This document shows positions 1,154 through 30,533 of a stretch of DNA of 64,000 nucleotides, piece by piece. The position numbers were made by a program, and so were the translations under genes. The notes under the pieces are model-generated. The model searched no databases and had not been told where the DNA came from. It was given only the letters and a program-made list of their open reading frames with translations. The DNA comes from Cyanidioschyzon merolae (Eukaryota), in NCBI GenBank assembly GCA_000091205.1, contig AP006498.2; one strand, given 5' to 3'. The stretch's first letter is position 1. Every line of letters starts with the position of its first letter.

Positions 1154-2119
1154 ACGCGAGCCCCTATTTATACGAACAGGCTGGGATTCCATTGCCGCGG
1201 TTGCCGTCATTGCCATACGTGCACGTGTTTGGGCATGGTAATGCGCTGGAAGGCAAACATGCATTTAAAGAGTGTTTGACAAAACATCACTGCAAAGAAA
1301 GTACTGCCAAAGGCGATTCAGCCAGAGACTCCATGCGCATTGCAGCGTTCGTGTCTTGAGCGGTATGGAGTGCGCTGCCCGCTTTCCAAGACGAACACGC
1401 CTCCGAGTGCGCCGGTGGCTTTCCGCAACTTCAAGCGACACTGTGCTGCCAGAGACGTTGCGCCCAAGATATTAAAAAACAAGGAGCGCAAACGATGTCG
1501 AACGCGCCAACGACCAAGTGCAGTAATCCAGCGTTGAGGCGCTACCCTCTCGAAAAACGGCGACTCGTTGGGAAGCCACCAGCAAAACAACCCTTCTTTG
1601 CGCTCATCCCCGAGGCAATACCTTCTTGCCACGTGACCCGAACGTCGTGCACAGGTCTCAGGTTGCGCTATGCGCCGCTGCAGCTCCTCTACACGGGTAG
1701 CAGCCGTCGTGCACCAGTGTCGCAACCCAGTCCCCTGGGCGACGTTTTCCGCTCTGTCTCACCGCCGTGTCAGCCGCGTGTCAGCTTCGGTGCGCACAGC
1801 TGCTGACCATCACACCCATACATATGCGACTCGAAAGCACTAGGTTGCTTCTATCCCGGGCCCATGAAGCATAACCGCTCTGGCATGCACACCCAGTGCA
1901 CACTGCCGCTCCAGTAGATGCGGCAATTGCATCGATGATGAGCTTGGACTGCTGCTGCAAGGGCGCGCACGACCTCGACGACGACGACGACGACGACAAC
2001 AACCACGCCCGTCGTGGCGTTCGGCTTAGGGCTTTGGGAGCTACCTGTCGTGAGCACGCTACATGCCTAAAGCTTGCAAGGTTTACCGACACTTTTCAGG
2101 TCCTTGATTCGGTGCAACC

Positions 2120-3052
2120 ATGTTCATCTCGTATAGTGTCAGCAGCTTGTGGCGAGTGAGCGATTATGACACGAGCTTCGTGTCATCAACGGGTCCACGC
2201 GCCCCAAATAACGAACGGCAACGGCGGGTAAGCACACGTCCATTTGCGCAGAACTTGCGTCTGGCAGAGGAACCAGTCTGGGATCGCAGACAACTTATGA
2301 AGCAAGCTGGAGTTCTGCTTGAGTTGCTGGCGATAAGCTCTGTTGCATCAGCCAAGGCAGCACAAGTTGCAGACAATCCGCCGACACAGCACACCAGCTG
2401 CCGAGCGGGGACTCCGTTCGCGAAAGTGACCGATAAAGCTCGTTTCGTAGTGCAAATAGGTACAACTAGTGGAAGCGAGCGGCTACCTCTTGTTATAGGG
2501 CTCTTCGGCACCGAGGCGCCTGAAGCGGTCGAGCGTTTCAAGCAACTCGTGGAACAGCGACTGGTGCATCACGGCCGACAACTCGGCTATTCGTATACAA
2601 CGGCGTCGCGCATCATACCTAACCAAAGGATTGAACTGGGTCGTATATCGCAACTGGAGGACTTGGCAACAGCTGATGGTGTCCCACTTCGCCCGAGGAT
2701 GCTGCTCTCCCCGGGGACCCGGGATCGTAACGCACTCCGGCATCGATGTGCTGGGACTGTATCGATTCCGCATGAGCCGGGACGCGGTTTCGAGTTTTGC
2801 ATTCTACCTGTTGATGTATCCGATGAGCATGCATTTGTTCAGGAGCTCGATGCGGAAAATGTTGTCATTGGCTGCGTGATCCAGGGTATGGATACCGTGC
2901 GCCAGCTCAACGAGATTCCAGTGAGTCGACCTACCCCGCGTGACATGCTGCGGCGAGTGGGGCAGGCCCTGGGCGACGTGCGTGCTCGCCAGGATCCAAC
3001 GTGGCGACCGCTGCGTAAAGTACGCATCCTGGAATGCTCCTTAATTCCCTAA
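2120..3052 (+). CDS. divergent cyclophilin-type PPIase-like domain protein (TLP40/CYP38-like pattern)
   Basis: 310-aa ORF; LFGTEAPEAVERFKQLV resembles the cyclophilin ELYG..AP.TVENF segment; GTVSIPHEPGRGFEFCIL resembles G.LSMAN.GPNTNGSQFFIT; VIGCVIQGMDTVRQLNEI resembles VFGRVVEGMDVV; N-terminal extension could be a targeting peptide. Confidence 0.45.
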   Translation: MFISYSVSSLWRVSDYDTSFVSSTGPRAPNNERQRRVSTRPFAQNLRLAEEPVWDRRQLMKQAGVLLELLAISSVASAKAAQVADNPPTQHTSCRAGTPFAKVTDKARFVVQIGTTSGSERLPLVIGLFGTEAPEAVERFKQLVEQRLVHHGRQLGYSYTTASRIIPNQRIELGRISQLEDLATADGVPLRPRMLLSPGTRDRNALRHRCAGTVSIPHEPGRGFEFCILPVDVSDEHAFVQELDAENVVIGCVIQGMDTVRQLNEIPVSRPTPRDMLRRVGQALGDVRARQDPTWRPLRKVRILECSLIP

Positions 3053-4328
3053 GGGATTTGAAGAGATATGGTGATCTCGATTCACAGTGAGCGCGTCCAT
3101 GCATCCTGCTCAGCAAGGCACAGAGGATCTGGGCATTCGAATCTGCGCCAAATGATGGGAGAACAGCTCTTTCGGAGGGAGGACGTCCATGCTCGTGTAT
3201 GCACAGCTTCGATATCTGCTTCCATTTCCCTGAGGAGGGAGGATGCAAATTCAGGAACTTGTCCAAGACGCCGGGTGACGGCTTTATATGAGCGACGGCG
3301 TCGTTGTTTTTGCCTGTGTACATGTTGCGTGGATTCTTCTCCTCTAACGAGTAACAGAGCCTTGGTTGTTCGTCTTCCAAGGTGTTTGTTTAGCAAGCGA
3401 TACGTCTCGCAGAGGAACAGGAACGCAGTCTATATACAAATATGGGGTCAGTGGGAGTCTTCGTGAACCAGCAAGTCGTAAACATGAGACTCGTTTCATG
3501 CTACATGAAACAACGAGTCGATAGTTCGACACAGGGGAAACTTGGATCGTGCATAATTCACTGGAGAACTGAGTGTCAGGAACCGTCCTTTTTCAAGAAC
3601 CGTCTAGGGCAAGGCGGGAAGCGCAAGGGTGCGCTGCGTCCAAGGGCCTCGCGCAACTGGCGGCTGTCCCCCAGTGCCGACGAGGCAGCGATATGCCCCG
3701 ATACCATCTCAAAGTATATTGGAGCTCTGAAAACTCTTGCATATGAAATAGCTCGGGATTCAATCTCTCAACGCCAAGGCGGTATCCAGGTCAACAATGC
3801 ACCCGTCATCCGATCCGTTTATTGCCGGCAAACTGAAACGCGTCGCTTCGCCTGCGAAACGCTACCGCGAAGCTCGCTATGCACTGTCGGCATCCGACGA
3901 GTGACCGACGCGTCAAAAAACGCTCTTCGGGTGACACCTCCTTTTCATGGAACCAACCTGTCCGAGAGAAAGTTTCGGAGTACGGTCGCTTACGGCCTTG
4001 TCCTGGACCGCAGTAGACCCGGTGAAGCGGCACAAGTCAACAGCGCGTACTCCTTGCGCTCATCAGTTCTTGCACTATGTATACTTGGACACAGTGAGCG
4101 CACCCGCTCCGCCAGGGAACCGCAACGAACGTCCATACCTATTTTATGCAGCAGCTGGAAGCCTATGCGTGGGCTCGAACTGAGCCCACACACATCAGCT
4201 GTGAATCCCTCTGGCAGTCGGTCCGCTGACGCTCGTAAGCGGAGACCGCTCCACAGGCACTCAACAGGCCTGATGTCGGCAAATCACAGCCTACCTTTAA
4301 CCGTGCAAGTGACTAGCGCCACGGAACA

Positions 4329-15612: not shown

Positions 15613-17028
15613 ATGTGGTGGAGCGCACTTTCGCGAGCAGCACAGCAGCGAAGCTGTTCGCTGTGGACGCCACTTGCGTGGCATTGGCGTCAGCGCTTCG
15701 ATAAAAAATTGGACCTGAGTTCGCGCTCTGCGAGCACAGACGTCGGGGCCATCATCGGCAACAACGAGAGTATACAACGCAAGCTTGCTGTCGATCCGAC
15801 TCGTCCGCGCGTTCGGAAACGCAAACCAACAACGCCGTCAAACCGTGCTACCGCTTTGATCGACTTTTCAGTGCTTTACCGAGGTCCTCCAGTCAAGCGA
15901 CTTACCGGGGGACTGCGGCGTTCCACCGGGGGGCGGAATAACCAAGGCCGCACGACTGTCTGGCACCGGGGCGGTGGACACCGACGCCTCTACCGGATTC
16001 TCGACTTGCATCGACGTCAGTACGCAGGATTGCCGGGCTGTGTTGAACGTGTAGAGTATGATCCAAACCGCAGTGGCCTCATTGCTCTACTGAGATATAC
16101 GCTGCCCGAGAAGGACGCGTCATCGGATACGACGACGACGACGTCGTCGTCATCAACGACGGTGTTTAGCGATCTGTATCGAAACCTTGCCAACGCACTA
16201 CAAGGAGCGACGACACCGCTGCCAACGTCGCCTTCTCCGGAGCCGAGACTTGTGTATCTTCCTTACGAGGTAGCGAAATCCGGGGCAGGCACGTCAGTAT
16301 CGGAGACTGGTACCAGTGCCCCGGCGACGATCACGGCAAATTCGTCAACGAATGCCTCGACGGCTTTGCCCAGCAGTGACGCCCCTGTGGAGCCATCGCG
16401 ACGCCCTGAACCAACAGTTCACATGGAAACCATTCGATCGAATGTGCGAGTTCTGAAAAGGCGCTCCGGATCCAGCCCCAAAACCCATCTATCGTACATT
16501 CTATGCCCGCAGGGTATTCGAATCGGGGACTTGCTGCTTTCTCGCACAGATGGCCCCGTAGAACCGAAACCGGGGAATGCGTGCCCCCTGCGTTACTTGC
16601 CCATCGGTACCACGGTACACAATATCGAAATGCGACCCCGCTCTGGAGGGCAACTCTGCCGCGCCGCCGGCACCAGTGCTCAGTTGCTCGAAAAGGACGA
16701 AAAGCGCAAACGAGCTTTATTAAGATTGCAGAGTCGTGAGGTGCGCTACATCCACTTGGACTGTATGGCCACAGTAGGCGCGGTGAGTAATCCAGAGCAT
16801 CGCAACCAATCGATTGGCAAAGCAGGTCGAAGTCGCTGGCTAGGCCGTCGACCAGTGACGCGCGGTGTCGCCATGAATCCGGTGGATCACCCGCACGGCG
16901 GCGGCGAGGGCAAGACCAGTGGCGGGCGACCGTCAGTGACCCCGTGGGGAAAACCAACCAAAGGGTATCGGACCGTGCGAAAGCCACGCGGTGCGAATTT
17001 CATCGTACGAAGGCGTTTCAAAGAGTGA
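15613..17028 (+). CDS. organellar (bacterial-type) ribosomal protein uL2, nuclear-encoded, with N-terminal extension and an internal low-complexity insertion of about 120 aa
   Basis: GRNNQGRTTVWHRGGGHRRLYRILD, VEYDPNRSGLIALL, PIGTTVHNIEMRPRSGGQLCRAAGTSAQLL, MNPVDHPHGGGEGKTSGGRPSVTPWGKPTKGYRTVRK and FIVRRR match uL2 signature segments in order; insert TTTTTSSSSTT...PSRRPEP between N- and C-domains. Confidence 0.8.
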   Translation: MWWSALSRAAQQRSCSLWTPLAWHWRQRFDKKLDLSSRSASTDVGAIIGNNESIQRKLAVDPTRPRVRKRKPTTPSNRATALIDFSVLYRGPPVKRLTGGLRRSTGGRNNQGRTTVWHRGGGHRRLYRILDLHRRQYAGLPGCVERVEYDPNRSGLIALLRYTLPEKDASSDTTTTTSSSSTTVFSDLYRNLANALQGATTPLPTSPSPEPRLVYLPYEVAKSGAGTSVSETGTSAPATITANSSTNASTALPSSDAPVEPSRRPEPTVHMETIRSNVRVLKRRSGSSPKTHLSYILCPQGIRIGDLLLSRTDGPVEPKPGNACPLRYLPIGTTVHNIEMRPRSGGQLCRAAGTSAQLLEKDEKRKRALLRLQSREVRYIHLDCMATVGAVSNPEHRNQSIGKAGRSRWLGRRPVTRGVAMNPVDHPHGGGEGKTSGGRPSVTPWGKPTKGYRTVRKPRGANFIVRRRFKE

Positions 17029-17672: not shown

Positions 17673-17999
17673 CTACTGAACCTCCGAGCCAAAGGATGAC
17701 CCTGCTAACGAGTCCACTTTGGCAATGTACTGACGCATGGCATCGTCAGCACTCATGCCTTTCAGGGAGTTCCAGGCTTCCCATTTGGCGCGTTCCTTGG
17801 GGTTAAGTATTCCCGGCTTTCCAGTGTTGCAGTCTCCGACCTTTGCCTGCTTGAAGCGACCATAGAGATACTTTTGATCATCCTGTGAAACAGATGACAG
17901 TGTTTTCACGTGTTCCGCAGCTTTGTCGAATACCTGTTTAAGGTTGCTCATACTCGTCACGAAACGCGAGCACAATACGCACAGCTCCGAGTCGGGCAT
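17673..17999 (-). CDS. ACBP: acyl-CoA-binding protein (ACBP/diazepam-binding-inhibitor family)
   Basis: 108-aa ORF; FDKAAEHVKTL, KYLYGRFKQAKVGDCNTGKPGILNPKERAKWEAWNSLKGMSADDAMRQYI match the ACBP fold signature (KQAxxGD, KWDAW). Confidence 0.8.
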   Translation of the reverse strand: MPDSELCVLCSRFVTSMSNLKQVFDKAAEHVKTLSSVSQDDQKYLYGRFKQAKVGDCNTGKPGILNPKERAKWEAWNSLKGMSADDAMRQYIAKVDSLAGSSFGSEVQ

Positions 18000-18100
18000 C
18001 TGGCAGTGCAGGTGCTCTCGACGGGGGTATCTGGCGCGGCAGTCGCGATCCGCGGCGCTTTCGTTTGTGACGCTCGGCGATCAATTCGTGACAGCACGAC

Positions 18101-18101
18101 G

Positions 18102-18133
<32 letters not shown>
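18101..18133. repeat. (TGCG)8 tetranucleotide microsatellite
   Basis: gtgcgtgcgtgcgtgcgtgcgtgcgtgcgtgcg read directly; lies in the 5' flank of ACBP. Confidence 0.9.
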
Positions 18134-18139
18134 GCAGCG

Positions 18140-18280
18140 GCTGGAATGCGCACCTAATCGGAGAACGCTGGCCCAAGTAAACGTTTTGTCAATGAAAAAA
18201 AAGCTGGAATGCGCACCTAATCGGAGAACGCTGGCCCAAGTAAACGTTTTGTCAATGAAAAAAAAAGCTGGAATGCGCAG
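18140..18280. repeat. direct tandem duplication, 2.2 copies of a 63-64-bp unit GCTGGAATGCGCACCTAATCGGAGAACGCTGGCCCAAGTAAACGTTTTGTCAATGAAAAAAAA
   Basis: unit starts at 18140, 18203, 18267 (third truncated); about 150-300 bp upstream of the ACBP start codon. Confidence 0.85.
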
Positions 18281-19133
18281 GCGCTCTGCATTCGCCAAAT
18301 GCGATCGTGCGGTGCCTGCTTCCGCTGCTGCTTCTCGCGCATTCGGGCCCTGGGCAGTGCCTCGTACATTCGTCGATACTGTACCACACGAGTCGATCCG
18401 GCTGCATCAGAGAGCAGCAGCTTTAGCGGGATACGAGTTTTGGTCGAAGGTAGGTCGTTTAGATTCAAGGAGCTCATGATGTGGAGTTTTGAAGTGAATA
18501 GCGCCCGCGACATCACCCGAGTCGATGCAATCTGCTTTCGCTGATGCGGGAGACGGAGTATTTCCGATCACAAAACGTTTACGTTGACCATGTATCCCAG
18601 ATTGCGGAGTGGTTACTGGTTTTCGGGAAAGCGTTCATTATAACGCAACCTACCTTCAAGTTCTATGGCCTGTTCTCAGATATTCTGGTCGTTTTGTTCG
18701 TTCTATTATGCGCCGAGTTCCTGTCTTACTGCACCCGCCGTGGCGCTTATGCCGTTGAGGCAGATGCTTCACGGAGCTGAATAGCATTGCCATATCACTA
18801 GCGGCTTCGGTTCGAGGCATGATTCATTCGACATGGAGTCGGGCTATATGATTATCCTGGGAGCCTGCAAGCTGCGCAAACAGGCCGACAGTCTGCGACA
18901 GCGTGAAGCGATAAGCTGGGAGTCCATTGCGACCAGGGCGACGCCCAGATGTAGCGTTCCAGTCCCAGTTCCAGAATGAACTGCATTGCGGGCGAGTTGC
19001 TTGGATCTCCCTACAGCTTTAGCTACTGAGGGGTGAATGAAGCACGAGCCTAGGGGACATTCTTGGACATATCAAGGATCCGTACGAGCAGGAATTTCGA
19101 GAGGCCATCAGAAACCGTTTCGCGTCCCACTCC

Positions 19134-21017
19134 ATGAGTATTAAAAAGGCTTCTTCAGAACTAATGCATATGGTGAAGGAGATTTATCGCGACATGACTG
19201 ACATCATAACAGTGGAGGTTCCGGAAGAATTTTGGAACAGGAACTTTATTCGTCACCTGATGCCTGGCACATGGGAAACGTCAAAGAGAGATGAACTCGT
19301 GCGTGCGTTCCACGAGGGTCGCGCCGAATTCCGCTTCAAGGGTACTCGATACAGGGGCGATAGGGATATTTACGACTATGGGGCTATGAAGTATCTCACG
19401 AACCTGAAGAACCATTTGACAACCAACCTCGAACGTTTCATAATAAGAGCCGTATTTGCGCTCTGCCCGGGCATCTCTCGCAAAGGGATATGGGCGATTA
19501 TCAATGACATCACGAACGATCGCAAGCATGAAGATGGGGTCGAATTCGTCGACAAGAAGGAGTCAAACGAGAGCACGAATGAAGCTTCTGTGATCCGTGC
19601 GGTTGTACAAGAGCACCGTGCAGTCGTGGGGCTGGCGAATCCGCCAGAAAAGATATCAGAGTTGAAAAAAGATAAGGAAAGATACGATCGCCTCGTCCTG
19701 CGCTATTTCCTGTTTTTGGACCGAGAACTCGAACGCAAGGCGGAGATGAAACTGAGTGAGGAAAGCAATGAAGAGTGGGAGAGACAGAAGGCTTTCCTAG
19801 TGGGTAAGCGCTTCAATGGCGTTCTGTTGTGCAACATAAAGTCACATTTCGTGAGTATCGACTCCGGAGTCCTCTAAGGCATCATGAAGGAGATCTGTCC
19901 GGAGTTCGATGTCAGCAGGGAGGAATTCACCGGCGAAACCCGTCCGACGTACTGGAAGAGTATCTTCGATTTCAAACGTCTCAAAGTGAGCAGGCAAAAG
20001 TTGTTCACTGGGATAATCGAAACCGATGGAGTAGCCATGTCTGTAAACTATCGGCTGTTGAAGAAAGATCGTCCAGTTCCGCCCTCGGCTTCGCCAGTGA
20101 CGAAGGATGAAGAAAAGGAGGAGGCCGGTCCTGCGACACAGGATGTGCAGGATAACGACCTTGTCGTTGGCGCGGCGAAGGATGAAGATGAGGAGGAGGC
20201 GGGTCCTGCGACGCACAAAGTGCAAGATAACGACTTTGCCGTTGGCGCGGACCCCGGAAACACAAATATCATCACCATGGCAGTACCCAAGCGTGTGGAA
20301 GATGGCGCTGACGGCAACTTACGTCAGAAAGACATGCGTTTGTTGAGATTCTCGAGAGCGAGACACTATCGAGAATCGGGAATCATGAATGCGAGGAAGA
20401 AAATCGAGACTTGGAATGCTGGAATAAAGGACCACTTGGAAGCTATGAGCGAGGTGACGAGCCGAGGAGCGGGCTTTCAAGCTTTCCGGAAATTTATGAA
20501 AGTTCGCGTTGCTCACTGGGATGCGCTGTGGGAAGAATATACAAAGCCTCGGTGGGCTCGTCTGCGTATGAATCTATACTGTGGGAAGCAGCGGGCGTTC
20601 GCGAACTTTTTCAATCAGTTGAGCGCCCTGAAGGAGGATGAAAGTCAGAGGCTCGTCGTAGCATACGGAGCAGGGCGCTGGAAGACCCAAAAAGGGTGTA
20701 CGCCAGCTCCAACTACAAGAACGTACAAGGAGTGTGCACGGCGTTTCGTTACGATACCTGTAGATGAGTTTCGAACATCGTATACACACCACGAGCTGGG
20801 TTGTACACTTCAGAGAGTGGAGATGGAAAAGTGCCAGAGGAGCCCTGAGGAAATCGCAAAGTACGCACCGCTGACGGAGAAGCAAATGGAAAGGATGGCG
20901 AAAGGTCGACGACTACTTGCATTAGTAAGTACAACCAATGATAGCAAGAAACGTATGGAGTTCGTGAACCGAAACTTTAACGCCGCTATCAATATAAGGA
21001 GATGTGTGGCGCTGTAG
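19134..21017 (+). CDS. Fanzor-like RuvC nuclease (TnpB homolog); two track ORFs (19134..19877 and 19884..21017) are in the same frame and separated only by one TAA
   Basis: Ruv[19 protein letters not shown] (GxDPG with catalytic Asp), Cys/His cluster [20 protein letters not shown], Ruv[22 protein letters not shown] at the C-terminus (TnpB/Cas12 RDxNAAxNI class); total about 625-660 aa; in-frame extension upstream to 19041. Confidence 0.7.
20118..20264 (+). repeat. internal tandem duplication (2 x about 72 bp) within the Fanzor ORF immediately N-terminal to and including RuvC-I
   Basis: [24 protein letters not shown] / [24 protein letters not shown]; DNA units gaggaggccggtcctgcgacacaggatgtgcaggataacgaccttgtcgttggcgcgg... 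and gaggaggaggcgggtcctgcgacgcacaaagtgcaagataacgactttgccgttggcgcgg... Confidence 0.75.
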
Positions 21018-21326
21018 AAAAGACCCTCCAGAGTTGAGAGAATTTCGTGGGACAACCTCTCAAAGTGGAACTATATGAGAAAAAGTTGAGAGAAGTAGTA
21101 GGTGGCCGGTCCAAAAAAGGGGAGGCGTCTGCACGTCAGTTGGCGACTTCGTGTCTAGGGCGCATTCGCCGCCACTACTGTACACCGCTGGCGACTGCTT
21201 TCGACTTTTGAAAGGCGTTCGCTGTCGCTGCCATGTGCTTCCGCAAAACCGCCTCCTCTGAACGGCCTCGACATCCGCTTTCGCAATAAAAGGCTCCGCG
21301 GGGTTTCCAATTGCTAAAACACGAGC

Positions 21327-22376
21327 TTAAAGACGGCGGTGTCTTTGAAAGATAAACACCGACTTGTCCCCGAGATCGTCCCGGATATTCTGCACAAATT
21401 TCCGTAAGGAAAATACCGTCATGAAAATGGCGACTACTGTGCTCAACGCGAGTCCCGAGTTTCCGGACGCGGTGCTCCACCAACCCAAGAAGTGTCCACC
21501 AACGAGTACCGGGACCAGCATGGCAAGCACCGACGCTTCTGCGCGTCGGAAACAGAACGCTTCCTTGAAGAACACGCCTGTCAGCGCCGCCGCCACCCAG
21601 CCGGCTCCCGTTAGAACGCCAACTGGATGCTGTATCAACCAGTGCACATACAAGTCGTGCGTGTTTGTCCATACCATCCACTCACTCAGTGCCGAGGTGA
21701 GTATTCCAAAGCCCAGCAAATACTGCAGCGCTCGATGAAGCGGCTTCAAGTAGATGTGGATGTAGTGTAGTGCGATACCCAGCCCGGCGACGCCACTCCA
21801 GTAGAGCGCCTCCACGAACGCAGTCGACCTGAATTGAGCCAAGTCCAGTGGGAGCTCTCCGTTCCCACTCGTTAACCAGGCCGCTCCAACAGCTGTCACA
21901 GCAGCTAAGGTAACCAACGCCATGCCCGCACGGTAAGCGCGCACCTCGCGAACGTCGGCCTCGGTTAGGAACCACTCACCAAAGGCGCCGGCGTACGGAC
22001 CACCGAGAACTTTATCTTCGTTTTGGCTGGACTTGAACGAGTTTGGTGAGAGCGACAGGCGCCAGCAGCGCTCCATACCACCATTACAACGCCGGCGACC
22101 TTGTCGTCGCTGCTGAACGCACCTGCTGTTCCGTGCTCTGAGCAAGGCGCGCATCTCAAATTGACGAGACGCTTGCCGACAGCACGTCTTGCTCCCATGT
22201 GTGCTAGGTAATAAAACCGTTCGAGAAAAAGACGAGTAAACAAAGTTGAAAGTCATGACGAACGGACCGTCGACGAGAGCGAAAAGCGCGTCTCGAAACC
22301 CAAGGAGATTATCGTTCCAGTGTTTCCGCCACTGCACGGCGGCCGATGACGACTTCGAGCTGCATACGCGGCACAA
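21327..22376 (-). CDS. predicted multi-pass membrane protein of unknown function (true start probably an internal Met)
   Basis: 349-aa ORF; at least 5 hydrophobic helices (MALVTLAAVTAVGAAWL, AFVEALYWSGVAGLGIALHYIHIYL, LLGFGILTSALSEWMVW, VGVLTGAGWVAAALTGVFF, VLAMLVPVLVGGHFLGWW). Confidence 0.4.
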   Translation of the reverse strand: MCRVCSSKSSSAAVQWRKHWNDNLLGFRDALFALVDGPFVMTFNFVYSSFSRTVLLPSTHGSKTCCRQASRQFEMRALLRARNSRCVQQRRQGRRRCNGGMERCWRLSLSPNSFKSSQNEDKVLGGPYAGAFGEWFLTEADVREVRAYRAGMALVTLAAVTAVGAAWLTSGNGELPLDLAQFRSTAFVEALYWSGVAGLGIALHYIHIYLKPLHRALQYLLGFGILTSALSEWMVWTNTHDLYVHWLIQHPVGVLTGAGWVAAALTGVFFKEAFCFRRAEASVLAMLVPVLVGGHFLGWWSTASGNSGLALSTVVAIFMTVFSLRKFVQNIRDDLGDKSVFIFQRHRRL

Positions 22377-22514: not shown

Positions 22515-22895
22515 CATATTGTGAGTAAACCAGAAAATGTTCCACGGATACTGGGGGTAGATTCATACCCACCAATAGAAACATCCGAGCATTTATGGAC
22601 TGGCCGCCTGCTTTCGGCATCAGCTTCTCCTTATAAAAGCATCAGAGGCTGCATCATGATTTTAGATCGCCTCAGGTCTTCAAGTCTGTTCTTCAGTGCC
22701 GCAAATCGTCTGATATCTATGCTCGCGTTACAGTCTCGTTTCACAAACTCTAGGCGTTTATTGCCACTGGTTGAACTCATGATTGCAAGCATTGCTAGCA
22801 CTGGTGCCGTCAACCACTCTACAGTTTCGTCTGTCGCTCATCTTCTCCTTTTCCCATTTCTTCGTTATTTGCTCTTCTTCGCTCCATGTTCGGCG
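22515..22895 (-). mobile_element. Fanzor 3'-terminal fragment A (C-terminal about 110 codons with frameshift plus conserved tail), inverted relative to fragment B
   Basis: minus-strand peptide AMLAIMSSTSGNKRLEFVKRDCNASIDIRRFAALKNRLEDLRRSKIMMQPLMLL (RDxNAxxNIRR); tail ...GGAACATTTTCTGGTTTACTCACAATA ends about 22515. Confidence 0.65.
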
Positions 22896-23245
22896 AGAAG
22901 AGCTATTTGCCCGACGACACAATGATGAGCCTGTCGTGGCACTGAGGTCGCGAGTTCTAGCAATCCTTGCATATCTGCGTTCAACCAGAGGCAATAAACG
23001 CATGAATTCAGTGAACCGAGGCGTCGACGCCAGCATCAATATCAGACGAGTTGCAGTGCTAAAGACGAGCCCCCAGGAGCTGACGCGAGCCAACGCTGTC
23101 CGGCAACCTCTGATACTCCAGGTATTCCGGGAGAAACGGAAGCCGATAGCATTCGACCGCTCCATAAATGCCACGAGACGTCTCCAAGTGGATATACCAT
23201 GCATCCCCATGATTGGGGAATGTTTTTCGTTTTATCGTTATTGCC
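22895..23245 (+). mobile_element. Fanzor 3'-terminal fragment B, forms a palindrome with fragment A
   Basis: peptide RSRVLAILAYLRSTRGNKRMNSVNRGVDASINIRRVAVLKTSPQELTRANAVRQPLILQ; conserved tail to about 23245; about 70-75% nucleotide identity to the reverse complement of fragment A. Confidence 0.65.
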
Positions 23246-23372: not shown

Positions 23373-26300
23373 ATGCGTCTTTCCGAGAGGCCGTGGTCAC
23401 CGGTGACGCCTTTCTTGGGCGCCTTTCAGTGTTTGCGGCGATCAGTTGATCCTGAAGCTGCAAGCTCCCGGAAGACGCCTGTCGACGGGGTACGGACGAC
23501 GACTCGAAGTCACTCGGTAACCGCTGTCGGAATAGAACGCGCTAGCTCGCTCGTGTCAAACGTTACTGAGGATGAGCTTCTTGATCAGTCGATACGCCCA
23601 GAACTTGTGCGACTCTTATCGAAAGGCGAGGGTGCACTCAAGTCCGAAAAGGAACCAGCAGCGCCCGTTACGGTACGTCTGCAGCTGAAACGCTGGCGAC
23701 GACGAGAGGCGTCCTCGGTAGAACACTGGAATCCAGCGGTTACGTGCCATGTAAGGCAAGGTCCCGACTGGGAGACCGCCTACGGTTCATGCCCAGCATC
23801 TGTCTACCTTGATGAGTTGGACTCGCTCTGGAGTATTTGTCAACGAAGTGCGCTGGATTCATCGAACACGGAGCAACCACAGCGCGTTGCATTAGCCGAT
23901 CGGTTGTGGTCTCTGTCGCTTCAACTACAAAGCATCGTGCATACTGGACGAATCAACTGGGCCAAACTTGCAGGTGCATGCGAGAGCGGCTGCCTGAATG
24001 CTTCCGGGCCTCGTCACGATACCGTTTCGGACTTGGGCGGTTCATCGACGACGCGTCTCATGACGGATGACGGACAAAACCTCCTGAATCATTCGTCCGA
24101 ATCTCCTTCATGTTACCAAGCGCCCGCTCAGGAGACGCATCATGACGATTCACCATCGTGGGTGTCGTCCAAGACGAGTCAAGGCAGTGCGGAGCTACCA
24201 TCGGTGCCGCTTTCACCTCAGATACGCCCGAAAGCAGCATTCGTATCCGCTGATATGGAACTAGTGGCTATTGCCGATGATCAGGGGCGGGCGGCATCGT
24301 ACGCTGACGGTGAGCATGCCACAGCAGTGTGTGCAAAGCTCGTTTCATGGCCCAGCGACGACGACGACGACGACGACGACTCGCAAGTATGGGATGCCTC
24401 TGCAGACGAGACGATGCGACGCTCACGAAGAAAGCACGTGCTCCGGATCCCGAAAGCAAAGCAGGAATACCTCGTGTCGGTACCTGCGTCATGTCCACAC
24501 TGGGGCATCTGGTGGCTGCCTGGAACCGCAATCCTCGAACCGCTCCTGGAGATACTGGAGAGCCCTACCGCCTCGATCGCCGTTGTTACCGCGACGCTGG
24601 AAACACTAGAGCGCCTCCTGCGGCGAGGAGCTGCTCGTGGCCTTGTGCTCGATGAACAGCGGGATGTTGTTGTCACAGTGGCGACAAGTAGCGTAGCAAC
24701 CGACGCAGGTTGCACCCAGGGATCAGCGACTGCCTCTATAGAAAGCTTTCGCGTACTTGGCCGCCGCTGGCTTGACCTCTACGCCCGGGAACGGGTGCTC
24801 GCGAGACTCGTGGTGGTTGCCCTCACGCGCTGGTATCAGCAGCAAGTTCGCGTAGCCGGCGCCGAGTCCGCTCTACTTTGCTTTCTTCATTTGGTGCAGA
24901 CCATTGTGGACGCTGGCGTTCCCAGTCTCGATGGAGACGCTGTCGCGTCTTCTACCGCTCTGAATAGAGACACCGGTGCCGCCTCGAGTTGCGGAGCATT
25001 GCCAGTCAGCGCGCTCGAGTCGCTCTGCCTGATGTGTCTGCACTGTGCCGCGGGACGTCATCGACTTCGTTCACCGCTGTTACGACGTCGCGGGGAAGAG
25101 GTGCTGGTGAAGATCAGTGAACTGCTCTTCCGTCGTGCGTCTGGAGCAGCAATTCGCAAGTGGATGCTTCGGCTGATTGCAGCGATGATAGACCCCACGG
25201 TTGCGGATGCTGCGCTTGTCATTTGTGGTGAAGACGCAGCGTCGATCACCGCGGAATCGTCATCTCCGGGGGAAACGGTGAACGATGATCACGTTGCAAA
25301 CCCCGTTTCTGAACTCCGTCGCATCCTCTGGGAGGACAAGTCCACTGGACGCGCTGCCACGGAATGGCTCGGCCTCGGCCTGCTGAACAGTTCCGTGGAT
25401 GCCAACCGTCGACGAAAAGAGACACAAGTACTGGGATTACGCATGCTGCATCCAGTTCTGGATGCCCTGATCCAGGCTCAGACGCCCATCTCCGAGCAGG
25501 TGCTGGGCGTGGATGCAACGCTTCGAGCGCTGGTGCTGGGTCCACTCAGCCTGGCCTTGTTGCGCTGTTTAGCCCAGAGCGATGACGCCTTGTGCGCAGA
25601 GGTACATGCGTTAGCGTTTCCACTCGCGCTCAAGCTCGTGGAATGCCTGGGACCGGAGGCGCTCACCTTTTTTCATACCCTGTTGACTGTGATCCTGCCG
25701 AGCGCCCTGGAGGGTGTCCGCGAACCCGCGATGCGCTCGAACGGCTCCGTTGCTCAAGAGCTGTGTTTCCCGCTGCTGCGTCAGCTGCTGTCGCGTCTGG
25801 ATCTACTCTGGAGCGCCTACCTTGCCTATGACTGCAGCCTGCAGTTTGCCGACGCTCTCGGGCCGCTGTTCCAGGTCATCGCGAACGCATCGCACCCGTT
25901 TGCGGTACCGCTCATGGCTACGCTGCTGGAGAGCCTCCAGCAACGCGACTGGGGTCCACGGCCGCTGCGGCTAAAGCCCTGCACTGCCGCGGACTGGGAC
26001 ACTTTGTACCAGCAGCGAGCACAGAAGCAGCGACGTCAACAAGTGCTGGATACATTGGCGGGAAACGGGGCCTCCCAGCGAGACTGGAATGCCACTGACT
26101 TGTGGAAGAGTCTCCAGAAAAGTCAGCTGCTCGGCGAGGGCACTCCACCAGAGCCAGCAGCAACACCATCTGCAGCGTCTTTGCTGGCGCAGTTTCTCCG
26201 CGCTACACCCGAACTTGACAAAGTCCTCATTGGCCAAGTGATCGGCAGTCCAGACCCGTTCAGTCAACAAGTGTTGGCTGCTTACGCGCAGACCTTTGAC

Positions 26301-29300
26301 CTGCACCAGCTTCCCATTGATGCAGCGCTGCGTCTCTTTCTCGAGTCGTTCCGCTTGCCAGGAGAGAGTCAGAAAATCGATCGCATCATGCAGGCATTTG
26401 CCACCCATTACTTTAACCAGAATCAGGGACCATCGTTGCCGCTGGCTTCAGCAGACGCTGCTCATGTACTCAGTTTCGCGATGATTATGTTGAATACGGA
26501 TCAACATCATGGACAGGTGAAGCAGCGCATGACTCTCGCAGATTTTACGCACAACAATCGAGGTATCAATGACGGTGACGATCTCCCTGCGGCCTATTTG
26601 CAGGGCATCTATGAGCGCATTCGTCAACAGGAGATACGACTCAGCGATGATCACGGTGTTGCTGCGCTCGACCGTGTCCACTGGGAGGCACTGCTGCGGA
26701 ACCAGCAGCATGCCCTGCAGGTAGGCAGCGGGCATGCCGAGCAGCTCTGGACGTCCCCAAGACGTGCTGCAGCGTGTTTGCTCGGTTTCATCTGGCCTAC
26801 GCTGCTCGAGGCGTTTGGATCACGACTCGTGCTGTTACTGTTTCCACCGGGAGTCGCCAGTGCAGAGGCCGGTGCCACGACTGCACATTCGTCGTCGACG
26901 ACGACGTCGACGCTGTCCAGCGCCCTGACAGAGCGACCCCAGTCCGCGGAGCACCGGAGCATGCGGCGTGCTGGGCGTTTGCTTAGCCAGGGCACCAGCA
27001 GTGGTAGCGGTAGCGGCTCTGAGCATCCTGCCGAGCCGCTTCTATTACCGGTGCTTGGTGCCGCTGACCCGTCATGGGATCAGGTCGAAGAGGACGCTTT
27101 GCCGTCGGGCGATGAGTCACGTGTCCAGTTGCAGGAACGCTGGCTCACACGTTGGGATCACTGGAGACGTACCATTGTTGAGGATCAAGGCCCGTGGCTC
27201 GTTCGCTATCGAACCCGAGCTGCGCTCCGCGAGGCCGTTCTCCGTCTCTTTTGTCGACTGGGCTGGACTGCGCATCTGCTGGCGATGCCTACGATTCTTG
27301 GACAGGTGCTCGAGCTTCTGACGCTGCTCACGGGTGTCGTCGATGATCGTTGGCCAGAGCCGACTCCGGAAACCGCAAGCCACCGCTGCTCGCTACCAGA
27401 AGCTCCATGTCCGTGTATCCAAGCACCTGAACAAGATGAAGCGGTCTGGGTGTTTCTAAGTCACTGGAAACGCTCCCGCCGGAAGACGCGCTCTGCTACC
27501 TGGCTCGGACGACATCGACCAGCACAGCAGGTTCTGGTTGCAGTCCTCGGGCTAGCAGCTCGGTGTCTACCCGGTTTGGACGCCGCCGCCTGGTGTGCGT
27601 TAACTGCGCTCCAGTTACGGCTGGTGGAGATGCGCCTCACGAGTCCGCTGCTCATCGAACCCGAATTCGTGAACTGGCTGCCGGCACTCTGGGCGCCCGA
27701 CGGGACCCTGTTGCTGCCGGGACGCTTTGCACCGCCCTGGGCGTCTATGCTGCGGGATCTGGCTCTTCGAGAGTGCCCTGAGCTGCAGTTGCTGCGGCCG
27801 TCAGCGGCGGACGTAGCGTCGCCTCAGCCGGAGCCAACCAGTCTGTCGGGGTGCGTGGCGGCCGGTACACCCCAGTCACCACAGCAGCGACACATGCGAA
27901 AGACTCGTTCCGCTGAGGAACGCCTCGAGAGGCGCACCAAACACACTGCTGCCGATGCCGACACCCAGAGCCTCATCGCCTCCAGAGGCATCGGAGGCGA
28001 TGACGGTGATGATGATGAGGATCATGCAACTGCGTCTGCTGCACAGCATACCGTGGATGCCCCTAGACTGGGTGACAGGATGCAGGTGCTACCCCAGGAG
28101 CTCGTGGATATGGCCGACGATTCCTCCGAGGCCAACAGTTACGGTGCGAGCGGAAGCGGGCTCTTGGCTACGCTCCTCAGCGGCATCGGGTTCGGATTCA
28201 GCGGCACCGAGACGAGTACCAGCACCAGTGCAGACTCCGCTGCGGCCAAAGGGCGTCCTCGACACGACAAGACGCAGACCGGCGGCGACAATGACCTTGA
28301 GCGAGCGCGTTCTTGGCGAGCTGTCGAGCGACTCATCGCGGATCCCGAGCCAGACGAGTTGTCGGACCTGGATGCGTATCGCAGTCCAACGGAATGTGCA
28401 CCTTCTACTCGAAACGCAGATGCCTCGCTTTCGCAGCCTGCAACGACGACGACAACCACCGCTGCCGATACAGGCGCTGGGAAGACAACAGCCCCTGAAA
28501 CGGAGCCGTGGCGGCGTCTGGTCGTCGAGGACTCGTGGGACCTCGTGCGAGCGGTTTTCCCGCGGTATCTACGGAAACCTGATATGGACGCGGAACGAAG
28601 GGCGCTTACCCGCCGCTGCCTAGTCTATGCCCTGCAGCAAGCGAACCTCTTTGACCCGGCTCGTTGGATGACGGCTTCCGCCGGACTGCTGGAGGCTCTC
28701 GGCCATGCAGCGCGTTGGGCGTACCAGCTGCCGATGCCCGCGGCAACACGGCCTGTTGCACTGGAAACCCTGCACCCAGACTCGGGGAATCAGCAGCACG
28801 AGCAGCACCAGCAACACCAGCAGAAACAGCAGCAGCCTGAGAGCGCTCTCACATCGACCTGGACTGTGTCAGCATGTCGCTGGTTTCCGCGTAGAGCGCT
28901 GTGGCGGTACGCACACCTCAGCGCCGCAGATACCGCAACCTGGCGCAAAGCCTGGCTCCTGGAACATGTATCACTGGTTGTGCTGAGTGATGTGGGACGA
29001 ATGCTTGCGCACTGGGGCGTGCTCCAGGAGCTCGTGCACATGGAAATGGCCACTGCCGTCGATGACCCGACGCTTTCCCTAGAATGTGCGGTGTTTGCTT
29101 TGGTGCGTTTGGTGCTGCGTGTGCTTGCCGTAGCGGAGCGCAACTTGTCCGATAGAGTCTGTTGGACAATTCTGGCGGCTGTCTACAAGAATCTGCGTCT
29201 GCTGATGCCGTTGGCGACCTCCGCCTTCGACGCGCTTTGTTTACCGGTGTTGGTTGCACTGGGAACGATACTGGAGCGGTATCCACGCTGGATACCCCCT

Positions 29301-30533
29301 GAGGACGGCTGGGAAACGCTGTGTCTTGTATTGGAGCGTGCTCTCCGACAGTCAGAGTCGACGGTGCAGGTAGCTTGGCAGGTGCTCATGCTTCTGCTTG
29401 CGCGGCTAGATCAGCAAATGGAGCATGGAACGCTCCACGAGACCGAGGAGTTTTCGCTCCAATGTCTCGAATTGCTTCTCACGGCGATCGAGCAGCCGTA
29501 TCGTCCAGCAGCTACTACTGCTGCATCCACTGGCACAAATGCCGTCTCTCCATATGGATGCTTTCAGCGCTTGTTTGCACAGCGTGCGGCTCTGTTGACT
29601 GGAGCCGAGCGTTGCTTACCGCTCCTCGGACGTCTCGCACGTGTCGTCGCTACCCACCGGTCCATATCGGTACGCTACGAAGCCCTGGTAACACTGGAAC
29701 GCATCCTGATGGAGCCGCTCTGGCAGAATATCTCGGAATCGTCGCGCGTAGAATTGTTTACCGGTGTGTTGCTGCCGCTCGCTGAAGCGCTGCAATGGGA
29801 GGTGCTCTCCAACGAGAGCACGTTGCACACAGATCCGGTGCTCCGAGAGCGCCTTCTCATCCGCTTGGTCATGGTGCTGAACCGGTTCTGGCTTTTGCAG
29901 CACATGCTGTTGCAGCAAGTACCAGAAACGACCATCAACGACTGGTGGATGCGCCTAGTGCGCATCCTAGGTGACCTGTACGCTGTTGCGGTACGGCGTT
30001 CGCGAGCACAGCGCCTCGCTGGCGTCTCCGACGGCCGCTGGGCATCGGCACCGGTGCCTGTAGCGGCCTCGGAGACGCTCGCGGAGCACATCCATGAGAC
30101 GCTCAAGAATACGCTCCTGGTTATGGTAACGGGTGGTTTTCTGGATCCAACTCTGGAGCTTGCTGGTGCAGAAACGACCGCTGTCACTGAGAATGCGTGC
30201 AGTACAGCTGCTCGACGTTGGTCGGAGACGTTCACGCTTCTGGCTCCGCTGTTTCCCGCGCTCGAGGAGGACCTGTTGGGACTTTTGGCGCAAGCACCGA
30301 TGCATCGCTCTCGCGCTGTTCAGCGAGACACGGACGCCGCCCATACGCTTGCCGAACAAAAAATCAGTCCGACACCCGTGGATGTTCCACAGCGACCGGA
30401 TGATGTCACGACGCATACACTGACCGAGACGAGCGCTCAGACAACGGACGCCAGCACGTCCACCTATGAATCGGCAGCGCCGAGTGCGGTGCTCTGCACC
30501 GACGAGCACTCCTGTACCGAACTGGACAAGTAA
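23373..30533 (+). CDS. Sec7-domain ARF guanine-nucleotide exchange factor, large BIG/GBF1-like
   Basis: 2386-aa uninterrupted ORF; Sec7 catalytic region FRLPGESQKIDRIMQAFATHYFNQN ... AHVLSFAMIMLNTDQHHGQVKQRMTLADFTHNNRGINDGDDLPAAYLQGIYERI (FRLPGE and MLNTD motifs); flanking HUS/HDS-like helical regions; several low-complexity inserts. Confidence 0.8.
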   Translation: MRLSERPWSPVTPFLGAFQCLRRSVDPEAASSRKTPVDGVRTTTRSHSVTAVGIERASSLVSNVTEDELLDQSIRPELVRLLSKGEGALKSEKEPAAPVTVRLQLKRWRRREASSVEHWNPAVTCHVRQGPDWETAYGSCPASVYLDELDSLWSICQRSALDSSNTEQPQRVALADRLWSLSLQLQSIVHTGRINWAKLAGACESGCLNASGPRHDTVSDLGGSSTTRLMTDDGQNLLNHSSESPSCYQAPAQETHHDDSPSWVSSKTSQGSAELPSVPLSPQIRPKAAFVSADMELVAIADDQGRAASYADGEHATAVCAKLVSWPSDDDDDDDDSQVWDASADETMRRSRRKHVLRIPKAKQEYLVSVPASCPHWGIWWLPGTAILEPLLEILESPTASIAVVTATLETLERLLRRGAARGLVLDEQRDVVVTVATSSVATDAGCTQGSATASIESFRVLGRRWLDLYARERVLARLVVVALTRWYQQQVRVAGAESALLCFLHLVQTIVDAGVPSLDGDAVASSTALNRDTGAASSCGALPVSALESLCLMCLHCAAGRHRLRSPLLRRRGEEVLVKISELLFRRASGAAIRKWMLRLIAAMIDPTVADAALVICGEDAASITAESSSPGETVNDDHVANPVSELRRILWEDKSTGRAATEWLGLGLLNSSVDANRRRKETQVLGLRMLHPVLDALIQAQTPISEQVLGVDATLRALVLGPLSLALLRCLAQSDDALCAEVHALAFPLALKLVECLGPEALTFFHTLLTVILPSALEGVREPAMRSNGSVAQELCFPLLRQLLSRLDLLWSAYLAYDCSLQFADALGPLFQVIANASHPFAVPLMATLLESLQQRDWGPRPLRLKPCTAADWDTLYQQRAQKQRRQQVLDTLAGNGASQRDWNATDLWKSLQKSQLLGEGTPPEPAATPSAASLLAQFLRATPELDKVLIGQVIGSPDPFSQQVLAAYAQTFDLHQLPIDAALRLFLESFRLPGESQKIDRIMQAFATHYFNQNQGPSLPLASADAAHVLSFAMIMLNTDQHHGQVKQRMTLADFTHNNRGINDGDDLPAAYLQGIYERIRQQEIRLSDDHGVAALDRVHWEALLRNQQHALQVGSGHAEQLWTSPRRAAACLLGFIWPTLLEAFGSRLVLLLFPPGVASAEAGATTAHSSSTTTSTLSSALTERPQSAEHRSMRRAGRLLSQGTSSGSGSGSEHPAEPLLLPVLGAADPSWDQVEEDALPSGDESRVQLQERWLTRWDHWRRTIVEDQGPWLVRYRTRAALREAVLRLFCRLGWTAHLLAMPTILGQVLELLTLLTGVVDDRWPEPTPETASHRCSLPEAPCPCIQAPEQDEAVWVFLSHWKRSRRKTRSATWLGRHRPAQQVLVAVLGLAARCLPGLDAAAWCALTALQLRLVEMRLTSPLLIEPEFVNWLPALWAPDGTLLLPGRFAPPWASMLRDLALRECPELQLLRPSAADVASPQPEPTSLSGCVAAGTPQSPQQRHMRKTRSAEERLERRTKHTAADADTQSLIASRGIGGDDGDDDEDHATASAAQHTVDAPRLGDRMQVLPQELVDMADDSSEANSYGASGSGLLATLLSGIGFGFSGTETSTSTSADSAAAKGRPRHDKTQTGGDNDLERARSWRAVERLIADPEPDELSDLDAYRSPTECAPSTRNADASLSQPATTTTTTAADTGAGKTTAPETEPWRRLVVEDSWDLVRAVFPRYLRKPDMDAERRALTRRCLVYALQQANLFDPARWMTASAGLLEALGHAARWAYQLPMPAATRPVALETLHPDSGNQQHEQHQQHQQKQQQPESALTSTWTVSACRWFPRRALWRYAHLSAADTATWRKAWLLEHVSLVVLSDVGRMLAHWGVLQELVHMEMATAVDDPTLSLECAVFALVRLVLRVLAVAERNLSDRVCWTILAAVYKNLRLLMPLATSAFDALCLPVLVALGTILERYPRWIPPEDGWETLCLVLERALRQSESTVQVAWQVLMLLLARLDQQMEHGTLHETEEFSLQCLELLLTAIEQPYRPAATTAASTGTNAVSPYGCFQRLFAQRAALLTGAERCLPLLGRLARVVATHRSISVRYEALVTLERILMEPLWQNISESSRVELFTGVLLPLAEALQWEVLSNESTLHTDPVLRERLLIRLVMVLNRFWLLQHMLLQQVPETTINDWWMRLVRILGDLYAVAVRRSRAQRLAGVSDGRWASAPVPVAASETLAEHIHETLKNTLLVMVTGGFLDPTLELAGAETTAVTENACSTAARRWSETFTLLAPLFPALEEDLLGLLAQAPMHRSRAVQRDTDAAHTLAEQKISPTPVDVPQRPDDVTTHTLTETSAQTTDASTSTYESAAPSAVLCTDEHSCTELDK
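24357..24380. repeat. (GAC)8 microsatellite inside Sec7 CDS (poly-Asp)
   Basis: gacgacgacgacgacgacgacgac; protein DDDDDDDD. Confidence 0.9.

Follow-up and report, generated by a model that had tools for sequence, protein, structure and literature searches.

The locus

Here, we describe a stretch of 64,000 nucleotides (nt) from the thermoacidophilic red alga Cyanidioschyzon merolae (contig AP006498.2 of assembly GCA_000091205.1; hereafter the window), in which the intergenic gap between an acyl-CoA-binding protein (ACBP) gene and a gene for a DUF2301 integral membrane protein is occupied by a decayed copy of CMe-1A, a multi-copy DNA element of C. merolae that lacks terminal inverted repeats (TIRs) and has a gene for Fanzor1, a eukaryotic TnpB homologue, as its only gene. 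We put the probability of this reading at about 0.95. The parts of the copy are as follows:

18565–21217, plus strand: CMe-1A copy with complete ends and an internal deletion, running from consensus base 1 to base 3169 at 78–89% identity
18565–19051, plus strand: 5' non-coding region, matching consensus 1–492, inside the part shared with the repeat TE-N2_CMe
19052–19059, plus strand: deletion junction, at which ~590 bp (consensus ~493–1080) are gone in the MAFFT/blastn alignment
19060–21146, plus strand: Fanzor1 pseudogene, remnants of CMe-1 codons 59–731 (of 734) with 77% amino-acid identity (tblastn)
20101–20250, plus strand: two tandem 75-bp units of 25 codons each, in frame, coding for an acidic, disordered linker that leads up to RuvC-I; a single unit in the consensus
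21158–21217, plus strand: 3' untranslated right end, with a conserved block, CCACTACTGTACACC, and, at 21197–21217, a terminal hairpin that is degraded in this copy

CMe-1A was described by Bao and Jurka (2013, Mobile DNA 4:12, PMC3627910) as a family of ~150 copies that are ~80% identical to a 3169-bp consensus, with no TIRs, with target-site duplications (TSDs) that were not determined and with a single Fanzor1 open reading frame (ORF) of 734 amino acids (aa); the 5' 635 bp are 95% identical to TE-N2_CMe. This founding paper, which gave Fanzor its name, already lists CMe-1 as a Fanzor1. The consensus DNA and protein, taken from its supplements, were aligned to the window by blastn, MAFFT and tblastn. 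With both blastn and MAFFT, consensus 1–492 corresponds to 18565–19051 (78% identity) and consensus 1081–2196 to 19060–20175 (87%), while consensus 2117–3169 corresponds to 20171–21217 (89%), its overlap with the preceding block being the second 75-bp repeat unit. Both published termini are in place, at 18565, where the element opens with CGATCACAAAACGTTTAC, and at 21217, and the same termini are found in many metagenomic copies. As the alignment to the consensus runs end to end and includes both termini, the locus is a copy of the published element; the family has thus been known since 2013, and the element is larger than the first-pass annotation of this DNA had described. No TIRs were found at any of the six CMe-related loci in the window, and no transposase is present in the list of ORFs within 18565–21217.

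The number of 75-bp units varies from one to about four between family members (homologues P0010 and P0011, with about four in P0010), and coverage by related copies doubles over consensus 2101–2200, where the unit lies. In an AlphaFold2 model, this linker has a predicted local distance difference test score (pLDDT) below 50. With each unit, the beta-strand residues that run up to the catalytic GxDPG motif are also repeated.

Frame 1 runs for 659 codons from 19041 to 21017, with a single internal stop (TAA, 19875–19877) and a terminal TAG at 21015–21017 (translation of 19041–21190); this reproduces the earlier claim of one frame of about 650 codons broken by one TAA, and the motif strings quoted with that claim all recur, in the same order, on translation of 19041–21190. 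The program-made list has two ORFs at the locus, 19134–19877 (247 aa) and 19884–21017 (377 aa, with an ATG start), both of which are absent from a protein collection that includes the annotated C. merolae L2 protein. The ‘near full-length’ Fanzor-like gene proposed at 19041–21190 is indeed Fanzor-like; the ORF lacks codons 1–58, the start codon and the last 49 codons, and the element to which it belongs extends more widely, over 18565–21217. AT and purine contents are slightly higher in the Fanzor region than around it.

The host genes on either side are all intron-less ORFs:

15613–17028 (ORF 15613–17025), plus strand: precursor of mitochondrial ribosomal protein L2, identical to BAM81879.1 of C. 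merolae 10D, the strain to which the window belongs
17673–17999, minus strand: ACBP gene (Pfam ACBP)
21327–22376, minus strand: DUF2301 integral membrane protein gene, with its stop at 21327
23373–30533, plus strand: Sec7-domain guanine-nucleotide exchange factor for ADP-ribosylation factors (ARF-GEF), 2386 aa

The membrane-protein gene had been named correctly as the neighbour of the element's 3' end; the two do not abut, being separated by a gap of 110 bp.

Membership of the Fanzor1 family

With curated hidden Markov model libraries silent on the matter, family membership rests on comparisons of profile and fold. The resemblance to other proteins greatly exceeds what chance would give: a full HMMER scan returned 1200 cluster representatives, and 223 homologues, all metagenomic, are 60–85% identical. 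Alignment A1, which holds 34 family members, was used as a profile and matched three solved structures, namely those of Parasitella parasitica Fz1 (PpFz1; 9cf0, E=2.2e-20), Spizellomyces punctatus SpuFz1 (8gkh, 1.8e-12) and Guillardia theta GtFz1 (9cer, 3e-4); a single-sequence phmmer search of PDB sequences gave nothing. The protein that was modelled is an intact homologue, P0005, which is 78% identical to the window copy, rather than the window protein itself. Its AlphaFold2 model (pLDDT 79; predicted template-modelling score, pTM, 0.71) was compared with the PDB by Foldseek, in which the best seven matches are all Fanzor1 (template-modelling score, TM, up to 0.61), and Fanzor2, the Cas12 variants (Cas12f) and TnpB rank several orders of magnitude lower. 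The model superposes on SpuFz1, as the first-pass annotation had suggested doing, with a TM of ~0.6 and a Foldseek E of ~1e-11.

No result contradicts this assignment; the points to be set against it are these. Neither Pfam nor NCBIfam matches the window ORFs, even at E<=10, and Pfam is equally without a match for five homologues; the sole family tag is a weak precomputed DUF8286. Conserved Cys pairs are found in none of the 34 aligned clade members, which therefore have no C4 zinc finger, and a literature search for Fanzor and Cyanidioschyzon found no report of RNA-guided cleavage by a C. merolae Fanzor. The profile search that had been proposed as a check is hence split in its outcome: OrfB_IS605 and OrfB_Zn_ribbon do not match, and the 34-member profile does match the Fanzor1 structures. 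Taken with the 77% identity to CMe-1 and the fold of P0005, the profile match at E=2.2e-20 to a solved Fanzor1 bears out the earlier description of the protein as Fanzor1-like. It is a Fanzor1-type TnpB homologue on a repeated mobile element.

The active site and the zinc-finger region

The active site of SpuFz1 comprises D383, N385, E541 and D606 (Saito et al. 2023), which, with an MBP-fusion offset of 394, become D777, N779, E935 and D1000 of chain 8gkh_P. In the profile alignment, D383, E541 and D606 fall on the family's GxDPG Asp, DEFRTS Glu and NRD Asp, respectively, and the corresponding codons of the window copy are given below along with the segment at the zinc-finger position:

20250–20252, plus strand: RuvC-I catalytic Asp (GAC) in GADPG, intact; A1 column D318, invariant in the 34 relatives, aligned to SpuFz1 D383
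20667–20669, plus strand: canonical RuvC-II position, here Gly (VAYGAG), as in all 34 relatives
20766–20768, plus strand: alternative RuvC-II Glu (GAG) in VDEFRTS, intact; A1 column E490, invariant, aligned to SpuFz1 E541
20784–20840, plus strand: THHELGC...MEKC segment, at the zinc-finger position of other Fanzor/TnpB proteins, with two Cys and two His and no CxxC pairs
20973–20975, plus strand: RuvC-III position, here Asn (AAC); consensus GAC, Asp in 32 of the 34 relatives, aligned to SpuFz1 D606

The RuvC-I Asp had therefore been placed correctly. Fanzors have replaced the canonical RuvC-II Glu with Pro or Gly and carry an alternative Glu ~45 residues downstream (Jiang et al. 2023, PMC10530073); in the present family, the Glu of VDEFRTS lies 33 residues downstream of the canonical Gly. 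The earlier reading of the missing Glu as a rearranged site agrees with both that paper and our alignment. That RuvC-II had simply been mislocated was considered and rejected, the VDEFRTS Glu being the relocated residue by the account of Jiang et al. The RuvC-III motif fared differently, since what had been called a catalytic RDxNAA reads RNFNAA in the window copy, the Asp codon having changed from GAC to AAC. An Asp that the family holds and this copy has lost is what would be expected of a pseudogene.

The Fanzor/TnpB motif of Bao and Jurka (2013, PMC3627910) includes a C4 zinc finger, flanked by [TS][TS] on one side and RD on the other. The Cys/His cluster that had been proposed as a zinc finger does occupy this position; it has no C4 motif and so is not one. 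The CMe-type copies have only HH...C...C there, an arrangement that is not conserved in the wider clade.

Copies beyond the window, their flanks and past selection

The family was followed through 80 loci (L002–L081) from one metagenome scan, which appear to come from Cyanidioschyzon-like algae, given that the cluster of the L2 protein also has many metagenomic members. Many of the copies begin at base 1 of the consensus and stop at its last base, 3169. The other copies are decayed as well: of 43 that remain after dereplication (42 on related metagenomic contigs, plus that of the window), not one has an ORF reaching 650 aa, and among the best 120 matches there is no homologue longer than 593 aa. 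According to Bao and Jurka, copies with an uninterrupted 734-codon ORF and the full D/E/D triad do exist.

In the dereplicated left flanks (n=18), T strongly predominates from −7 to −1 (TTTTTY), being present at −2 in 17 of them, and dereplicated right flanks (n=23) start TTYGKTG; the window copy, ...GTATTTC / element / TTCGCTG..., fits this pattern. A consensus at the left ends, for the target site or a transposon-adjacent motif (TAM), had been named as something to look for, and TTTTTY at the 18 left flanks is a candidate for it. On the other side, at least 7 nt past the published right end are semi-conserved as TTYGKTG across independent insertions, with TTTGTTGTCGCTGCC or TTTGTTTYCAGGGG in several of them. 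Either the 2013 consensus stops short of the true terminus, or a particular target is preferred in insertion or homing.

In the RuvC half, conservation is 0.90–0.96 at codon positions 1 and 2 and 0.81–0.86 at position 3, which indicates that part of the divergence of the family took place under selection for the protein. This signal agrees with the remark of Bao and Jurka (PMC3627910) on long-lasting coding capacity.

The right end and the mode of movement

RNA-guided, TAM-dependent cleavage has been demonstrated for SpuFz1, GtFz1 and others (Saito et al. 2023; Jiang et al. 2023, PMC10530073), and by analogy we infer it for the CMe family. Were a copy functional, its omegaRNA would be transcribed from the gene's 3' end together with the element's right end, and the 734-aa protein, bound to this RNA, would cut DNA beside a TAM. 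The cut would be made by a single RuvC site, to which GxDPG and NRDxNAA each contribute their Asp and VDEFRTS its relocated Glu.

The right end at 21158–21217 is a candidate for either the omegaRNA scaffold or a transposition signal of the family. A hairpin made by the last 20–23 nt closes exactly at the element's final base in 19 of the 20 distinct termini. Two sequence types of this hairpin occur, CGTTTTTC-TTTT-GAAAGRCG and CGTCGTTCGA-CTT-TCGAACGGCG; in our reading, manual alignment from the stem base leaves a single difference between them, a U-A pair exchanged for G-C. Because of G-U pairs, the hairpin is about twice as stable in sense RNA as in antisense (−6.9 versus −3.5 kcal/mol). The 3' 226 nt of the consensus fold better than shuffled sequences (z=−2.3, 1/200), and those of the window copy do not (z=0.07). 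Across a MAFFT alignment of 24 right ends, RNAalifold gives a weak consensus structure of −5.3 kcal/mol with no compensatory pairs, and the proposed helices pair in 83% of cells compared with 31–57% in slid controls. Two structures drawn by hand show no covariation beyond that of shuffled alignments, synonymous sites in the 3'-terminal part of the ORF show no excess constraint of the kind that an overlapping omegaRNA might leave, and an Rfam search of the whole window at gathering thresholds gave no match. On evidence that is suggestive only, an omegaRNA is plausible for the CMe-1A family; in the window copy it would be decayed.

A fuller and more tentative proposal, which concerns the family and not the window copy and which we think possible and short of probable, is that the conserved 3' end, with its long-range helix CAGUAGUGG/CCACUACUG and terminal hairpin, and the TTTTTY at 18 insertions are the omegaRNA scaffold and T-rich TAM of a zinc-finger-less Fanzor1 lineage, whose master copies have been kept by purifying selection and may still be active in Cyanidioschyzon populations.

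The same features can be read otherwise at the level of the family. CMe-1A could be a non-autonomous rolling-circle (Helitron2-like) element or an IS200/605-like single-strand element, with Fanzor as cargo and the hairpin acting as a signal for a transposase, not as part of an omegaRNA. The absence of TIRs, both in our search of the window and in the published description (PMC3627910), would suit such an element, as would a hairpin on the last base in 19 of 20 distinct termini, a T-rich flank before the left end and a right flank that begins with TT. The Helitron2-like form gains from the Fanzor1 elements of Chlamydomonas, which are Helitron2 non-autonomous elements with 5' TSDs after TTTT, and from a 10-nt match in the consensus between left-end positions 5–14 (GACAAAACGT) and ACGTTTTGTC, ~62 nt from the right end. 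However, this inverted match is lost in individual copies, including that in the window, and the element begins with C where Helitron2 prefers T. No RepHel or TnpA gene was seen, with no genome-wide search made for either, and the greater stability of the hairpin in sense RNA than in antisense would also fit a role as RNA. On balance, we consider a rolling-circle or single-strand origin unlikely, while still giving it appreciable weight.

Lesions of the window copy

Whatever the family is capable of, the copy in the window is an old pseudogene left by past transposition and not a recently inactivated gene. It has at least five independent disabling lesions, and by its sequence it would be unable to act as a nuclease. 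Through the ~590-bp deletion the gene has lost its ATG (consensus 906), its A/T-rich leader and codons 1–58, in which a basic N-terminal segment, GKKRKT...KKQKREARRQR, resembles a nuclear localization signal. Alongside the Asn at RuvC-III, two nonsense codons were acquired:

19875–19877, plus strand: nonsense TAA in place of a conserved His/Tyr codon (consensus CAC, His; Tyr in other copies and the wider family, ..VLYGI..)
21015–21017, plus strand: premature TAG (consensus GAG), through which the last 49 codons are lost, including the conserved RPxxLxR tail

The RPxxLxR tail is conserved even in SpuFz1 and PpFz1. After the premature TAG, indels of +1, −5 and −2 nt shift the frame.

The first-pass annotation had supposed that the copy was very recently inactivated, spliced or read through, and a functional gene for a ~650-aa Fanzor1 nuclease, with the TAA bypassed by splicing or read-through, would account for there being one in-frame stop only between 19041 and 21017 and for the intact RuvC-I Asp and alternative Glu. 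The alignment to the consensus is, however, colinear across the TAA, with no inserted sequence and hence no intron, so that splicing offers no rescue. With the start codon, leader and 58 N-terminal codons deleted, Asn in place of the RuvC-III catalytic Asp, and the conserved C-terminal 49 codons removed by the TAG and frameshifts, we regard a working gene as extremely improbable. Equally hard to credit is co-option of the 377-aa ORF at 19884–21017 as a catalytically dead RuvC-fold RNA- or DNA-binding protein, i.e. a domesticated Fanzor fragment. In favour of it, this ORF is ATG-initiated, spans the whole RuvC half and bears the Asp-to-Asn change, a classic ‘dead nuclease’ substitution. Against it, the ORF has neither a leader upstream nor the half (WED/REC) with which Fanzor1 proteins of known structure bind omegaRNA and TAM (Saito et al. 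2023), and the protein collection containing the C. merolae annotation does not include it. In addition, other copies have decayed in a similarly random way, and the 3' RNA region of the window copy folds no better than shuffled sequence (z=0.07).

Other Fanzor-related remnants and repeats in the window

All six Fanzor-related remnants of the window are intergenic, and the five other than the CMe-1A copy are small:

14328–13886 and 54921–54392, both minus strand: short, old, internally deleted CMe-1A relatives with ~65–83% DNA identity
22811–22577 (minus strand), 22937–23186 (plus strand) and 44572–44229 (minus strand): 3'-terminal Fanzor1 gene fragments, ~45–55% identical to CMe-1 at the amino-acid level

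In the relatives near 14 and 54 kb, the leader and first ~45 codons (consensus ~820–969) are joined to the last ~90 codons (~2835–3090), and this shared architecture suggests a non-autonomous ‘ghost’ subfamily, as opposed to two independent deletions. The fragments at 22811–22577 and 22937–23186 are arranged head-to-head with 126 bp between them, shortly before the start of the Sec7-domain gene. The five small remnants (14, 22–23, 44 and 54 kb) have a common 3' tail, ..GTCGTGGRACATTTTYYGTTTYAC.., unlike the right end of CMe-1A. A separate intact subfamily was considered as the source of these fragments and found no support, their best protein matches being of the CMe-1A type at 45–52% identity.

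Some 300 bp upstream of the element, a 63-bp tandem repeat (18140–18279; 2.2 copies, 98% match) adjoins a (CGTG)8 microsatellite at 18100–18133. Each of its units includes, on the minus strand, nine consecutive T and then CATTGACAAAACGTTTAC, a 16-nt motif shared with the left end of CMe-1A; this motif has three matches in the window at up to three mismatches where 0.43 would be expected.

Significance

As a discovery, the locus carries little weight, the family having been catalogued in 2013 and the window copy being non-functional. Its value for annotation lies in an unannotated 2.65-kb repeat and five smaller relatives, all intergenic, in a genome reputed to be almost transposon-free. At the level of the family, the T-rich left flank, the semi-conserved right flank and the hairpin on the last base were left open in the 2013 description and go unmentioned for C. 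merolae in Saito et al. 2023 and Jiang et al. 2023; the same is true of the clade-wide loss of the zinc finger and the codon-position signature of past purifying selection. Such features could guide biochemical tests of Cyanidioschyzon Fanzor1. Should the omegaRNA and TAM proposal prove true, the CMe-1 protein would be a candidate for a heat- and acid-adapted compact RNA-guided nuclease.

Comparison with known systems

The closest known system is the CMe-1A consensus itself, with which the window copy shares organism, family, termini and the lack of TIRs, and to whose 734-aa protein its translation is 77% identical; it differs in the 590-bp deletion, the extra 75-bp unit, two nonsense codons, the Asp-to-Asn change and frameshifts. 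The Helitron2 non-autonomous elements, to which the Fanzor1 elements CRe-1/2/3 of Chlamydomonas belong, are marked by a 3'-terminal hairpin, asymmetric terminal inverted repeats, a 5' hairpin and T as first base; CMe-1A has a 3'-terminal hairpin, an asymmetric inverted match of 10 nt in its consensus that its copies do not keep, and C as first base.

ISDra2 TnpB (IS200/IS605, PDB 8H1J) has the same RuvC-based architecture and a presumed omegaRNA-guided mechanism in common with CMe-1, with a weak fold match (E=0.03). In contrast to prokaryotic TnpB, CMe-1 is eukaryotic, about twice as long, has a large helical N-terminal half and is not accompanied by a neighbouring TnpA; it also lacks a match to OrfB_IS605 or OrfB_Zn_ribbon as well as the zinc ribbon, and has Gly at RuvC-II with a relocated Glu.

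SpuFz1 (Spizellomyces punctatus, PDB 8GKH, Saito et al. 2023) has the same overall fold at only ~15% sequence identity. Its activity, omegaRNA and CATA TAM have been established experimentally, whereas those of CMe-1 are proposed by inference. SpuFz1 keeps its Cys pairs (CPRC...C..NC), as does PpFz1, while the CMe family has lost them. CMe-1A is without TIRs, whereas the Spu-1 element has 30-nt inverted repeats, the left one preceded by two conserved nucleotides (CA; Saito et al. 2023), and TSDs that are putatively TA (Bao and Jurka, PMC3627910). The SpuFz1 and CMe families are alike in leaving many ORF-less or partial ‘ghost’ derivatives in their genomes.

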